Shown here piece by piece: positions 50,912 to 56,139 of a stretch of 64,000 nt of DNA (within the stretch, counting starts at the first letter, position 1; each line of letters begins with the position of its first letter). Position numbers and translations under genes: made by a program. The stretch lies in the sequence record JX128257; one strand, written 5' to 3'. The notes under the pieces are model-generated. The model had not been told where the DNA came from. It did no database searches and was given only the letters and a program-made list of their open reading frames with translations. This DNA comes from Escherichia phage ECML-4.

Positions 50912-51148
50912 ATGAACGATCATTACCTAACTTTCACAACTGGAACGCTACTCATGGCTAAAGAAACTCTGACTAAAGAAAACTCTAACTTCGCAGAATG
51001 GCATGCAGAATTAGAGCGTGTCGCTCGTTCTCAACATGGCTCTGCCGCCGATGCTATGGCGTGGCATGAAGATTATGAGTCTGGCAAAACCCCGCGTCAG
51101 GCTTGGGAAGATGAATGGGGGTGGAATGATGCAGACTCTAATTCGTAA
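50912..51148 (+). CDS. hypothetical protein (start uncertain, 50912 or 50954)
   Basis: ORF from track; Trp/Glu-rich. Confidence 0.35.
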   Translation: MNDHYLTFTTGTLLMAKETLTKENSNFAEWHAELERVARSQHGSAADAMAWHEDYESGKTPRQAWEDEWGWNDADSNS

Positions 51149-51359
51149 GATATATCTGGATAAGAACTATTTGGAATCCAAAATCGAAGTTTTCTCGGCT
51201 CAAAAAATAATTGAAGACGGTGAAACGAGATATTATCTGAAACCTGACCTTTATCTTCCAGGAAGTAGTTTGAATCGCGATATAATTCAGTCGGACGGTA
51301 TTACTGTTCGTTGGGAAATGGCGTCACAGGAAGACAACTGTCATAGCATAACACTTTGA
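51126..51359 (+). CDS. hypothetical protein (77 aa)
   Basis: In-frame ATG 51126 within track ORF 51018..51359, overlapping the previous gene end. Confidence 0.3.
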   Translation: MMQTLIRKIYLDKNYLESKIEVFSAQKIIEDGETRYYLKPDLYLPGSSLNRDIIQSDGITVRWEMASQEDNCHSITL

Positions 51360-51374
51360 AGAGAGATCTATATT

Positions 51375-51815
51375 ATGTCAAAAGAAAAATACATATTCAT
51401 CAGCCCCGCTACGAAGGAGTTCTTCATCTCCGACGTGAAAGATCGTGTTGAGAAGTTCCGCTACATGCGCAGCTATGGTCTGGCATCCGGTGATATTGAT
51501 TATCAGTCACTGGACAATGATCGCCAAGATCTGATCGACGACGGTTGGCGTTTAGTTCCGTCCCCTCAGTACATTCATATCACGTTGTACTATATGAAGG
51601 ACAGCGGGAAGTTCTATTCCGAAGGTGAACTCGTACTCAATCGAGGAGAAGCAGAAGCCGAACCTGCCAAAACCTGGATGTTGGCGATGGATCAGATCCG
51701 TGAATTGCTGGACTCCGGTAATCTGCCTGGCCTAATCAAGGGTTCAAAATTCGACGTGTTCGTTACTGGCCAGGGTCATCCTGGTGGATACCCACATCTG
51801 TTCCGTATTAACTGA
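51375..51815 (+). CDS. hypothetical protein (146 aa)
   Basis: Complete ORF, compact spacing. Confidence 0.5.
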   Translation: MSKEKYIFISPATKEFFISDVKDRVEKFRYMRSYGLASGDIDYQSLDNDRQDLIDDGWRLVPSPQYIHITLYYMKDSGKFYSEGELVLNRGEAEAEPAKTWMLAMDQIRELLDSGNLPGLIKGSKFDVFVTGQGHPGGYPHLFRIN

Positions 51816-51823
51816 GGTCAATT

Positions 51824-52198
51824 ATGAGCAATTTACCACTGCTTCAAGTCGGTGACGTATTCATTCTCACGGCAGAAATGACCGTTGAAACTCAGGTGCC
51901 AAAGCATTTCTTGTATTCTAATTGCAAGGGTGATTGGCAAATGGACTCTGGTTATATCACCCCTGAGGGATTCTTCGGTTACATGCAAGGACATTACGTC
52001 GTTACCAAAACAGCCCTACAAGGCGGTAGCACTGGTCATGATCCATACCCTGACGGCCATCATGTTTGGGCGCAGCATACCGAAAATGAACGCATCAGAA
52101 TCTGTTTCTATCAGACAGGTAGTTTCAGGAATATGCACCGGAATGTTCCAGTAGTCGGAAAGGCTAAGGCGCAAACATGGACTTGGGAGAAATTATGA
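51824..52198 (+). CDS. hypothetical protein (124 aa)
   Basis: Complete ORF. Confidence 0.5.
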   Translation: MSNLPLLQVGDVFILTAEMTVETQVPKHFLYSNCKGDWQMDSGYITPEGFFGYMQGHYVVTKTALQGGSTGHDPYPDGHHVWAQHTENERIRICFYQTGSFRNMHRNVPVVGKAKAQTWTWEKL

Positions 52199-52431
52199 AA
52201 ATCAAAAAGATAGGTGCAAGCCCATTGACGGGAACAATCTTCCAGGGCACTTTGAACACCAAGACCAGTATGTGGGTCGGTGAGAAGACTGATGTGACTA
52301 ACGACTGTGTAGCGGCTACGGCTGAACACATGCGTCACATCAAGAAAGACTACTGCTTCCCTACTAAAGACGGCAAGTTCCTGGTGCTGAGCGCTGAGGT
52401 TCACGACACCCTTCCTGATCGCTTCAAATAA
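52196..52431 (+). CDS. hypothetical protein (78 aa)
   Basis: ATG 52196 after GGAGAAATT; ATGA overlap with upstream stop. Confidence 0.45.
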
Positions 52432-52456
52432 ATTTAAAATTTATTCAATAAACGGG

Positions 52457-52485
52457 GTTTACTTCTTCAATAAACCCCGTATACT
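52457..52485 (+). promoter_or_regulatory. T4-early-like promoter (GTTTAC-N17-TATACT), near-identical copy of the element at 6132
   Basis: GTTTAC 52457-52462, 17-nt spacer, TATACT 52480-52485; -35 lies inside hairpin CGGGGTTT ... AAACCCCG; preceded by TTATTCAATAA. Confidence 0.5.
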
Positions 52486-52534
52486 TCATTCCATAAGCAG
52501 CACAATACTGACTCTGAAATGAAGGAAATATATC

Positions 52535-53996: not shown

Positions 53997-54026
53997 ATAA
54001 ATTTGCCACCCATGAGGAGTTATACC

Positions 54027-54197
54027 ATGTTACAAATACTGTTGGTGCTTTGTGTCGCATTTACCATGTACTTCATGGCACGCATCGGTTTTATTACTTT
54101 AGATGACATGAAGGGTATCCCACGTGAACCCAAATTCATCTTTCTGAAGAAGTTTGCCAAAAAGTTCTCAGAAAACTTTATTTATCATCTACCATGA
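54027..54197 (+). CDS. small membrane protein (56 aa)
   Basis: ATG 54027 after GAGGAG; MLQILLVLCVAFTMYFMARIGF hydrophobic N-terminus; track ORF starts at TTG 54003. Confidence 0.4.
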   Translation: MLQILLVLCVAFTMYFMARIGFITLDDMKGIPREPKFIFLKKFAKKFSENFIYHLP

Positions 54198-54224
54198 TTA
54201 AATACCCCCAAAATTGGGGGTATT
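54198..54224 (+). promoter_or_regulatory. late-promoter-like TTAAATA box embedded in 12-bp perfect inverted repeat
   Basis: AAATACCCCCAA-AA-TTGGGGGTATTT, 3 nt before ATG 54228. Confidence 0.5.
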
Positions 54225-54227
54225 TTT

Positions 54228-54956
54228 ATGAACGCACAAATCTATGATGTCCTTTCCTCTGGCAATGCATTTAGCAATCCGCTTCCATCCCTCTCCGGTC
54301 CTTCTCAGGATTTAATAACCAGTGGCATCACCAATATACCATTGATAACTGCCAACGCTACTCCGGAGATGCAGGCGGCTATGGCAGCTGGTGGACTAAC
54401 ACCAGAAAAACTCACAGCAGCCAGCACCATGTATAGCACCGCCAACACAGGGATAACAACTCTGAACACATATGGCGACCAAAGTATCAATGACGCGTAT
54501 TCTCGCATCGGTACTTCCGTGTCATACAAATCAGGTCTGAAGGGTATATCACGAGAGCCAAACAATTGTGATTTGATCAACAAGGCTTTTGGTGTTGTTC
54601 AGGATTTAGGACGCCAATGGCTGAATGCTATGGAAGGCGCTCTACAGACCGTAACAAACAAGATATCGGAATTGTATGAGATGATCATGGAAGGTGCCTC
54701 AGAAGGAATGGCAAAGCTGCAGGAATTGGCTGCAGAAGTAACGGGACACATCAATACTGCGATAACCGCAGTCAACGGGGTTATAAGTGATATTACAGAT
54801 GGTATAGCCGCAGAACTTGCTCACATTGAAAGTATGATCAAAGAGTGCTTGAATTTCTCTTTTGCTAACGTGCTCGGGGAATGGGCTAAAGATCTGTGCG
54901 CCGGAGGTGTTATTGACAAAATAGGGACTCCAGCATTAAAAGAATCCCTGAAATAA
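54228..54956 (+). CDS. hypothetical protein (242 aa), probably late-expressed
   Basis: Preceded by the late-promoter/hairpin cassette; Ala/Thr/Gly-rich. Confidence 0.55.
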   Translation: MNAQIYDVLSSGNAFSNPLPSLSGPSQDLITSGITNIPLITANATPEMQAAMAAGGLTPEKLTAASTMYSTANTGITTLNTYGDQSINDAYSRIGTSVSYKSGLKGISREPNNCDLINKAFGVVQDLGRQWLNAMEGALQTVTNKISELYEMIMEGASEGMAKLQELAAEVTGHINTAITAVNGVISDITDGIAAELAHIESMIKECLNFSFANVLGEWAKDLCAGGVIDKIGTPALKESLK

Positions 54957-54957
54957 A

Positions 54958-55578
54958 TCAATGACGAGCAGGGAGGACTCCCACTGGTTCGATGCCTTCG
55001 ATCATCAGGGAGTCCACTCCAACATCGCTCAGGCGAATCCAAACCTTACCCCCTGGCCTTATCTCATAGATGTTCATCTCGTTTCCAACAGCAGACCCAT
55101 TCACAAAAACGCCTTGAGTAGCAATCCGAATAGGCGTTTTGGTGTTGTTGATTATCTGAAAAGATATCGTGATATCCCTTGTCAATTCCACATTTCTTGC
55201 TTTTGTATATCTCCTCAATTTTTCAAAGAAAGATGGATTGAATGTGGCTATGATGCTGTTGTTTTGTGAGTAGTAAATACTGGCAGACAGATAAGGGATT
55301 TTTCCCTCATCACCTTTCCTCAATAGAGGGATCGTGGTTTTCCAGTACGGTCTCAACGCCTGGTTGTTATCATCAAAACAACCGACGGCTTGTATGGTTT
55401 GGAAATTCTGGAAGTCTGCCACAACTTGATCCAGTAACTTTTTATTACATTTGTCGACATCAGCAGAAATATTGACTGGTATAGTTCTGATTTCAGGATC
55501 CCAAAGATCGGTGACAGAAATCACGGACGTGACAAAGATACGGCAGCTTGTAAGTACAAGCACCATTATCATCGTCAT
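54958..55578 (-). CDS. putative lipoprotein
   Basis: Track ORF 54958..55656; internal start MTMIMVLVLTSC gives a signal peptide with lipobox-like LTSC; only minus-strand gene in this stretch. Confidence 0.45.
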   Translation of the reverse strand: MTMIMVLVLTSCRIFVTSVISVTDLWDPEIRTIPVNISADVDKCNKKLLDQVVADFQNFQTIQAVGCFDDNNQALRPYWKTTIPLLRKGDEGKIPYLSASIYYSQNNSIIATFNPSFFEKLRRYTKARNVELTRDITISFQIINNTKTPIRIATQGVFVNGSAVGNEMNIYEIRPGGKVWIRLSDVGVDSLMIEGIEPVGVLPARH

Positions 55579-55641
55579 GATCCATTTTCTGAATCCGCGT
55601 ATCAGGAACACTAAAAAATTCTCCACAGCAAAGGTGCTAAC

Positions 55642-56139
55642 ATGACAGGTGTACAATTCAAAAACGAAAATCCTAATTTCGCGGCTTCCGATAAATGGCG
55701 CTTAACCATCGGAGACCTGGTGCTGCTAACCCGTTCGATACACGACTTCAGTATCCCTGGCGTGTATTCCGAAGGTATCGAAGGCCCATCCCCTGGCGAT
55801 GTCCTAAACTCTATACCTTCAGAACGTCTCACGTATGACCCCATCGTATTTACGTTCGTTATCGATGAGAGTTGGTACAACTGGGAACAGATTTACAATT
55901 GGATCGCTTCGAACGCGGGTTCAGATTTAGCCGTCAGTAGAGATATTACGATTGAACTTTTAGACAACATGAACCGTCCTGTTGGGCTTCAGTTGCTTCT
56001 AGAAGAAGGGCGACCAACAGCGCTAGACAACGTGTTGGTTGACGTGGATGCATCGGTTCCTCAGTTGGTCACAACGGTGACATTCAAATATCTGAAACTG
56101 ACTCCGACCCGCGTAACCCGCGAAATTGATAAACAATAA
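55642..56139 (+). CDS. hypothetical protein (165 aa)
   Basis: Complete ORF. Confidence 0.5.
   Translation: MTGVQFKNENPNFAASDKWRLTIGDLVLLTRSIHDFSIPGVYSEGIEGPSPGDVLNSIPSERLTYDPIVFTFVIDESWYNWEQIYNWIASNAGSDLAVSRDITIELLDNMNRPVGLQLLLEEGRPTALDNVLVDVDASVPQLVTTVTFKYLKLTPTRVTREIDKQ

Follow-up and report, generated by a model that had tools for sequence, protein, structure and literature searches.

What kind of region is the run of small genes that lies between the head genes and the recombination genes of Escherichia phage ECML-4? The interval in question covers positions 50912-56139 of a 64,000-nucleotide stretch of the sequence record JX128257, which is called the window below. A first-pass annotation had read the interval as a block of about twelve small open reading frames (ORFs) of unknown function following the capsid gene, in the kind of region that in T4-like phages holds functions of host takeover and anti-defence. 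The analysis leads, with fair confidence, to a different reading: the interval is probably a mosaic stretch of a Kuttervirus genome between head and recombination genes, composed of three layers and not forming one functional system.

The source phage is Vi01-like and belongs to the genus Kuttervirus of the family Ackermannviridae. The window is 99.7% identical to Escherichia phage vB_EcoM_3HA11 (3HA11 below) and 98-99% identical to Vi01, Sa157lw and many others. Kutterviruses have T4-type core genes in common and are relatives of T4, yet they stand outside the T4-like phages in the strict sense, and the first comparison with T4-like phages has to be changed to this extent.

Thirteen genes and their distribution

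The interval holds 13 genes, here named A to M, 12 of them on the + strand and one on the - strand, with the first ATG at 50912 and the last stop codon at 56139; the block first described is therefore real and its coordinates were exact. The same 13 genes are annotated at the same places in 3HA11 and its relatives (the ORF listing agrees with four relatives), and they already figure as hypothetical in hundreds of genomes, with no work on their function found in the literature searched. The ratio of nonsynonymous to synonymous substitutions (dN/dS), obtained by the Nei-Gojobori method in pairwise comparisons with five or six relatives, lies between 0.01 and 0.5 across the ORFs wherever the synonymous distance (dS) is measurable, which argues that they are real coding genes under purifying selection. 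F is without a homologue in the loci used for this comparison, but it matches PHROG 16902 at 2e-41 and is found in 29 phage records.

To establish how each ORF is distributed, presence and identity were tabulated for the corresponding loci of nine Ackermannviridae phages, which represent six genera. C, H, I, K, L and M occur in all six genera, or in all except Bue1, and E and J are widespread as well. Conservation of C, H, I, J, K, L and M across Ackermannviridae genera does not fit an accessory region throughout. The likeness to a T4-type plastic region stands for part of the block, where it is borne out by the A/B site, the slot with F and G, the alleles of C and an early-type promoter sequence before F. 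The features of the interval, in window positions and with lengths in amino acids (aa) or nucleotides (nt), are as follows.

50837-50859, + strand: intrinsic terminator after the major capsid gene; nine-pair GC-rich hairpin, then a T run (-15.9 kcal/mol, z -2.8)
50912-51148, + strand: gene A, 78 aa, acidic (isoelectric point, pI, 4.6)
51129-51359, + strand: gene B, 76 aa, with a 20-nt overlap with A
51375-51815, + strand: gene C, 146 aa
51824-52198, + strand: gene D, 124 aa
52195-52431, + strand: gene E, 78 aa, DUF7446
52432-52534, + strand: cassette 1, non-coding; AT-rich stretch, hairpin, early-type promoter sequence, 5' leader and ribosome-binding site
52535-52801, + strand: gene F, 88 aa, basic
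52807-52824, + strand: palindromic hairpin between F and G, AAGCCCCTGCAGGGGCTT (-11.8 kcal/mol)
52849-53178, + strand: gene G, 109 aa, acidic, chimeric
53179-53247, + strand: cassette 2, non-coding; hairpin at 53201-53219 and box TACAAATA immediately before H
53248-53568, + strand: gene H, 106 aa, pI 10.9
53574-53996, + strand: gene I, 140 aa, YspA-type SLOG protein (DUF2493)
53992-53999, + strand: TATAAATA box, 28 nt upstream of J
54027-54197, + strand: gene J, 56 aa, one predicted membrane helix
54198-54227, + strand: hairpin or terminator overlapping a TTAAATA late-promoter-like box, directly before K (-16.6 kcal/mol)
54228-54956, + strand: gene K, 242 aa, DUF7217 virion protein
54958-55611, - strand: gene L, 217 aa, GTG start, DUF7424 lipoprotein
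55642-56139, + strand: gene M, 165 aa, tail-tube terminator by homology with T4 gp3

The starts of three ORFs were refined. The ATG of E at 52195 overlaps the stop codon of D as ATGA; I begins at 53574, 5 nt past the stop of H, in agreement with its 140-aa orthologues; and L begins with a GTG at 55611, which yields a normal lipoprotein signal peptide and agrees with orthologues of 216-219 aa. The size range of 56-165 aa first proposed for the ORFs holds for 11 of the 13, K (242 aa) and L (217 aa) being larger.

Upstream of the block lie the prohead protease, scaffold and major capsid genes, the last of these closed by the terminator hairpin that had been noticed before. The recombination genes expected downstream are present, with uvsY (UvsY Pfam family, 8e-10) followed by a PD-(D/E)XK exonuclease gene and uvsW. 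No known RNA family reaches its gathering score within the block. Elsewhere in the window, the fixed coordinate offset to the 3HA11 record breaks at 23500-30900, in the tailspike region, so that the window differs there, whether by insertion, by deletion or by replacement of tailspike genes. Five tRNA genes (Ile, Ser, Tyr, Asn, Met) are clustered on the minus strand at 11600-12863, two of which are labelled differently in the 3HA11 record.

The variable genes and the cassette-bounded slot

The first layer would consist of exchangeable accessory genes: A and B at a homing endonuclease site, the alleles of C, D, and F with G in a plug-in slot. A matches the C-terminal part of PHROG 519 at 7e-23 (dN/dS around 0.11), and its domain is also present in lambdoid and Stx2a-converting phages. 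B, which matches PHROG 7113 at 3e-39 (dN/dS 0.10-0.22), is 75-83% identical in other Kutterviruses and missing from Sajous1, AR2819 and LIMEstone1, where a homing endonuclease stands in place of A and B. The site is probably occupied in the same way in LHE287, which carries there an unnamed 1473-nt ORF of the same size as the LIMEstone1 enzyme, and CBA120 has two additional ORFs between A and B. Homing endonuclease genes are also seen away from this site: the window has one of the GIY-YIG type at about 44531-44989, with the tail sheath gene on one side and the tail tube gene on the other, and in LIMEstone1 uvsW contains an intron-encoded one.

C is restricted to Ackermannviridae and is kept in all sampled genera as deeply divergent allele classes. 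The ECML-4 protein is 55% identical to the allele of four other Kutterviruses despite flanking genes at least 96% identical, and 98% identical to its counterpart in LIMEstone1, a Dickeya phage that belongs to another subfamily. Since the dS of this second pair is 0.79 at 98% protein identity, the two proteins represent an old allele class under very strong constraint, and a recent transfer of C between Kuttervirus and Limestonevirus can be discarded. Among Kuttervirus records the two allele classes have comparable frequencies, with about 111 records at or above 95% identity and 127 under 60%, and the high-identity class takes in 21 Dickeya phages of the other subfamily. In the protein database, 25 alleles were found at 53-89% identity, some of them visibly recombinant, and the N-terminal 62 residues vary more than the remainder. 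The allele classes would have been moved by recombination between otherwise near-identical genomes. Structure prediction gave a confident model of C, a small alpha/beta protein to which no known fold was matched. A role as head-to-tail adaptor, suggested by a single-sequence match to the Sf6 gene 7 protein (E 0.11), was rejected when the match was gone in a profile search; the armadillo-repeat matches of the profile search were spurious, being sums over a 17-residue motif in designed repeat proteins.

D matches PHROG 7702, carries a His/Asp-rich motif (dN/dS 0.04-0.14) and was found, among the loci compared, only in Kuttervirus genomes, with no copy in the loci from the five other sampled genera. 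Proteins of about 180 aa that are homologous to D are encoded on megaplasmids of Paenibacillus polymyxa and Brevibacillus (tblastn 6e-7, pairwise 7e-14), where they sit among DUF4046, WGR and DUF4121 genes; D and these proteins have the motifs LQVGDVF and GG..GHDPYP.GHHV..FYQ.GSF in common. A likeness between D and the C-terminal region of the defence reverse transcriptase DRT1 is limited to one short stretch, the one with these motifs, and is at noise level (E 0.056 and 0.32); it is kept as a lead only. In Sajous1 virions, the D homologue is represented by one spectrum. E belongs to the Pfam family PF24233 (DUF7446; 4.5e-30, dN/dS 0.01-0.08) and is present in most Ackermannviridae, as well as in a few siphoviruses and Vibrio phages.

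The position between E and H shows at least five states of occupancy in the genomes compared, which are listed here.

F and G, a pair that within the sample is confined to the 3HA11 lineage
proteins of 105-154 aa that form one family but differ at the C-terminus
in LIMEstone1, an unrelated ORF of 93 aa
in 0507-KN2-1, an unrelated ORF of 99 aa
no ORF in LHE287, cassette 2 following directly after cassette 1

The 29 records with F comprise a few Kutterviruses, Klebsiella Ackermannviridae (around 53% identity) and large Citrobacter and Yersinia phages of 175-180 kb (around 45%), which we take to be T4-type. Full-length copies of G were found in only 6 records, and its C-terminal 44 aa, with their Cys residues, are 77% identical to the C-terminus of an otherwise unrelated slot protein, CBA120 orf176.

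Between genera, the two non-coding sequences that bound this slot are the best conserved of the block. Cassette 1 (103 nt) is 97% identical to its counterpart in LIMEstone1, 91% in LHE287 and 88% in 0507-KN2-1, and cassette 2 is 94% identical to those of LIMEstone1 and LHE287, while most of the neighbouring coding sequence of the block lies below both, at 52-75% nucleotide identity between genera. The hairpin of cassette 1 (52452-52480) has a predicted energy of -14 kcal/mol (z -4.9) that no shuffled sequence equals; that of cassette 2 has -12.3 kcal/mol (z -3.4), and hairpins are also present after F, G and J. A promoter-like site overlaps the first hairpin, with GTTTAC at 52457-52462, a 17-nt spacer and TATACT at 52480-52485 (9/12 in the scan); an AT-rich stretch lies ahead of the site. 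The early promoters of T4 have the same GTTTAC as their -35 consensus, and the LIMEstone1 record has a putative early promoter annotated at the same site. Cassette 1 was found at 710 places in 281 phage records, around 2.5 places per genome, and two full copies of the promoter lie within the 64-kb window. The core of the second (17 nt, at 6132-6148) has the same -10 box and a similar ribosome-binding region, and it forms part of the following feature.

6104-6212: second early-type promoter cassette; AT-rich stretch, GTTTACTTCTTCAATAA, six bases, GTATACTTC and, further on, GAAGGAAATACATCATG

This copy precedes a gene for a 185-aa hypothetical protein starting at 6210, one of several clustered small genes on the + strand that diverge from the DNA polymerase gene.

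Conserved initiation contexts had been claimed for the whole block. The claim holds for F and G, which have 17 of 18 nt of the initiation region in common, TGAAGGAA(A/C)TATATCATG, and for uvsY at 83%; the other ORFs have just ordinary Shine-Dalgarno-like stretches, a purine-rich stretch of this kind preceding all starts. Similar GGA-N-ATCATG starts are seen at H, uvsY and several head genes.

Taken together, cassette 1 would combine a hairpin, a T4-early-type sigma-70 promoter and a shared ribosome-binding region. Its hairpin may end the transcript of A-E, and the cassettes would drive early transcription of the slot occupant and of H-I-J. They may also provide the homology by which ORFs are swapped, following the logic of T4-type promoter-stem-loop cassettes. 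Hyperplastic regions with promoter-early-stem-loop (PeSL) cassettes were reportedly described in T4-type phages by Arbiol and colleagues in 2010. The interval resembles these regions in its small, patchy ORFs between conserved modules, flanked by a stem-loop and an early sigma-70-type promoter sequence, in a cassette that recurs in the genome, and in occupants that differ among close relatives, with one slot empty (LHE287). At 52432-52534 and 53179-53247, a stem-loop with an early-type promoter sequence, repetition in the genome and differing flanking ORFs were all found. The interval differs from the T4-type regions in belonging to another phage family, in a promoter sequence that overlaps the hairpin, and in having only two full promoter copies in 64 kb and around 2.5 places per genome.

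Family-wide genes and a proposed late or envelope module

The second layer would be made up of family-wide genes: the basic protein H, the SLOG protein I and the small protein J with one predicted membrane helix, with H and I coupled in translation. H matches PHROG 4663 at 1e-60 and was found only in Ackermannviridae, no match being obtained in PDB or Pfam searches. It is 91-92% identical to the proteins of LIMEstone1 and LHE287 over 85% of its length, with around 70 conserved aa at the C-terminus and a variable N-terminus.

The SLOG-like protein of the earlier description was confirmed in I, which reaches 32.3 bits on Pfam PF10686 (9e-8), where the cutoff for gathering is 28.2; the domain is also detected in all 30 full-length orthologues listed. 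By its motifs, I is a YspA-type SLOG (DUF2493) protein, a branch of the SLOG superfamily reportedly defined by Burroughs and colleagues in 2015. It follows the motif layout of that branch (TGSR, G.A.G.D, R-N), a domain common in phages, and differs in being a stand-alone protein of 140 aa with a basic tail. TGSR, G.A.G.D, R-N and WDG.STGT are invariant in 19 orthologues, as is the tail, GKPKTKRL. The protein is present in every Ackermannviridae locus examined and its family in 612 phage records from many taxa, and a sequence search of PDB gave no relative. A DNA- or nucleotide-handling role is our preferred guess by analogy, because the DUF2493 domain is fused to an SF1B helicase in ICP1 HelB.

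J, the small membrane protein noticed at the outset, matches PHROG 4845 at 7e-33 and has a single hydrophobic helix in its N-terminal segment (19-residue Kyte-Doolittle mean 2.1). Its position is kept in four of the five other sampled genera, where the identity is 36-40%, with no match in Bue1. The TATAAATA box before J is the sole exact match to the T4 late consensus in the 64-kb window, and LIMEstone1 has a late promoter annotated at the homologous site. This box was rejected as the late motif of the phage, given its single occurrence; the motif enriched in the window is CTAAATA, with 15 copies against 7.4 expected and no shuffle reaching 15. Copies of CTAAATA lie ahead of uvsW, of the scaffold gene and of a small ORF that follows the portal gene, and none lies in A-I.

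K, L and M would form the third layer, a late or envelope module, with K placed behind a late-promoter-like box inside a terminator hairpin. The TTAAATA box is the 5' arm of the -16.6 kcal/mol hairpin, the arms of which, TAAATACCCC...GGGGTATTTT, are kept in the six phages of six genera compared, while the loops vary; LIMEstone1 has both a late promoter and a terminator annotated at this site. K belongs to Pfam PF23854 (DUF7217; 5e-99), and its homologues reach into Ounavirinae at 27-31% identity. By homology and from the literature, K is a virion protein, of low abundance, mass spectrometry having detected it in particles of two relatives. Sajous1 gp166, 100% identical to K, gave 8 spectra in CsCl-purified virions (PMC10892097). 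LIMEstone1 ORF129, 64% identical, is recorded as a confirmed structural protein and independently backs this assignment.

Three other proposals for K were rejected. A fusion of I, J and K, suggested by PHROG 289, a 500-column profile that spans the three in order, is at odds with the nearly always stand-alone DUF7217 proteins: among 1.84 billion representatives the family forms 33 clusters, of 118-308 aa and stand-alone with one exception, a repetitive 927-aa protein that aligns over only 35 residues in seven repeated stretches. A membrane protein is contradicted by the lack of any hydrophobic segment, and a tape measure rests on matches to tape-measure, apolipoprotein and baculovirus PEP proteins that reflect weak similarity of helical composition.

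L is the lipoprotein that had been recognized on the opposite strand. Its N-terminus (MFLIRGFRKW-IMTMIMVLVL-TSC) ends in the lipobox L-T-S-C, the positions of which stay within [LVI][ASTVI][GAS]C; Cys23 is invariant in 23 homologues, as are the Arg at +2 and two further cysteines. The residue at +2 governs the sorting of lipoproteins, and since this is Arg and not Asp, L is most likely exported and lipid-anchored in the outer membrane. The Llp protein of T5 and the Cor proteins are phage-encoded outer-membrane lipoproteins that block superinfection. L likewise comes from a lytic enterobacterial phage and has a lipobox signal peptide without Asp at +2; it differs in being around three times larger (mature protein of about 195 aa) and conserved across all sampled genera. 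The resemblance is one of kind of protein only, as L has no sequence or fold similarity to anything known. The divergent starts of L and M (55611 and 55642) are just 30 nt apart, so that either the promoter of each lies inside the coding sequence of the other, or M is transcribed from upstream through L in antisense.

On its sequence, M is the counterpart of the T4 gp3 tail-tube terminator. Its residues 43-151 align with the solved structure of gp3 (PDB 9mkb) at 3.9e-4, the two proteins having 165 and 176 aa and low sequence similarity, and M matches PHROG 45 'tail tube' at 2e-33. In T4, gene 3 lies among baseplate and tail genes and not, unlike M, beside uvsY. LIMEstone1 ORF127, the homologue of M, is recorded as a confirmed structural protein, and Sajous1 gp168, 100% identical to M, gave 8 spectra in virions (PMC10892097). 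With a gp3-type tube terminator in M and a known virion component in K, the block can no longer be described as ORFs of unknown function throughout.

Alternative readings and the meaning of the locus

Several points weigh against the three-layer mosaic. The 8 spectra obtained for K in Sajous1 are at a level at which contaminants can occur (PMC10892097). The model of L was only moderately confident and matched nothing informative in the fold comparison. No convincing or canonical promoter was found for A-E, L or M, and, taken over all its sites, the promoter scan gave no enrichment relative to shuffled sequences (18 sites against 13.4 expected). The literature searched contained no Ackermannviridae transcriptome, so that the assignments to early and late expression rest on consensus matches. 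Finally, the conservation of the cassettes could instead reflect a structured RNA or another regulatory site.

The best placed of the rival explanations takes the whole block as an island of early genes for host takeover and anti-defence, like the early regions of T4, with most ORFs acting as effectors against host systems. The early-type promoter sequence before F and the patchy distribution of A/B, D, F and G speak for it. So do the alleles of C, deeply divergent and recombining within the genus as is seen in conflict genes, the predicted structure of C, which as a small alpha/beta protein without a known fold would be like many phage inhibitors, and the relatives of D in accessory regions of Bacillota megaplasmids. 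The local match of D to DRT1 would also point this way, but it stays at noise level. Against the island stand the virion proteins K and M, the former with a late-type promoter box, and the cross-genus conservation and strong purifying selection of C, H, I, J, K, L and M. In addition, searches of Pfam, PHROGs, NCBIfam, PADLOC and the PDB sequences, libraries that are not catalogues of anti-defence proteins, matched none of A-M to a named family of anti-defence or host-takeover proteins, and fold comparison, carried out for C and L only, revealed no likeness to any inhibitor or takeover protein already characterised. As a description of the whole block this explanation is unlikely, and for K and M the host-takeover or anti-defence reading has to be withdrawn.

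An extension of the morphogenesis region, with most of the small proteins acting as assembly chaperones or as minor virion or internal proteins made late with the capsid and tail genes, would suit the position of the block on the same strand between the head genes and gp3, the lack of a recognisable promoter of their own for A-E, which read-through could express, the virion proteins K and M with the one spectrum for D, and the very basic H, similar to internal DNA-associated proteins, but it is improbable, since only K, M and that one D spectrum of the 13 homologues appear in Sajous1 virions, the capsid gene is cut off from A by a strong terminator, the promoter sequence ahead of F-J is of the sigma-70 type and not a late one, and related phages can do without A/B, D, F and G, which fits essential assembly roles badly.

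Within the three-layer mosaic, A-G behave as a plastic accessory region that is probably expressed early, and the anti-defence or host-takeover reading is plausible for these genes only. A bolder version, in which A-G would be the Ackermannviridae counterpart of the T4 hyperplastic regions, an early, cassette-exchanged slot occupied by new families of effectors in host interaction or anti-defence, is doubtful as a whole. C would be its main candidate effector, with a confident model without known fold and ancient classes around 55% identical, one of which is 98% identical across two subfamilies at a dS of about 0.8; this would be in keeping with balancing selection exerted by host targets that vary. 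D, with its GHDPYP.GHH motif and megaplasmid relatives, could be a second candidate.

Kutterviruses such as CBA120, Vi01 and Det7 are in use and under study for the biocontrol and phage therapy of E. coli O157 and Salmonella, with more than half of their genes lacking an assigned function. For one such locus, the 13 genes can now be sorted into likely virion or tail parts (K and M), a conserved envelope lipoprotein (L) and variable genes (A, B, the C alleles, D, F and G), which leaves a short ranked list for anti-defence and host-range screens and, in the slot, a natural insertion site for engineering. The region reveals no new kind of system; it is a new example of an already known genome architecture in a well-sequenced phage group, in which C and the slot between the cassettes deserve to be tested at the bench.

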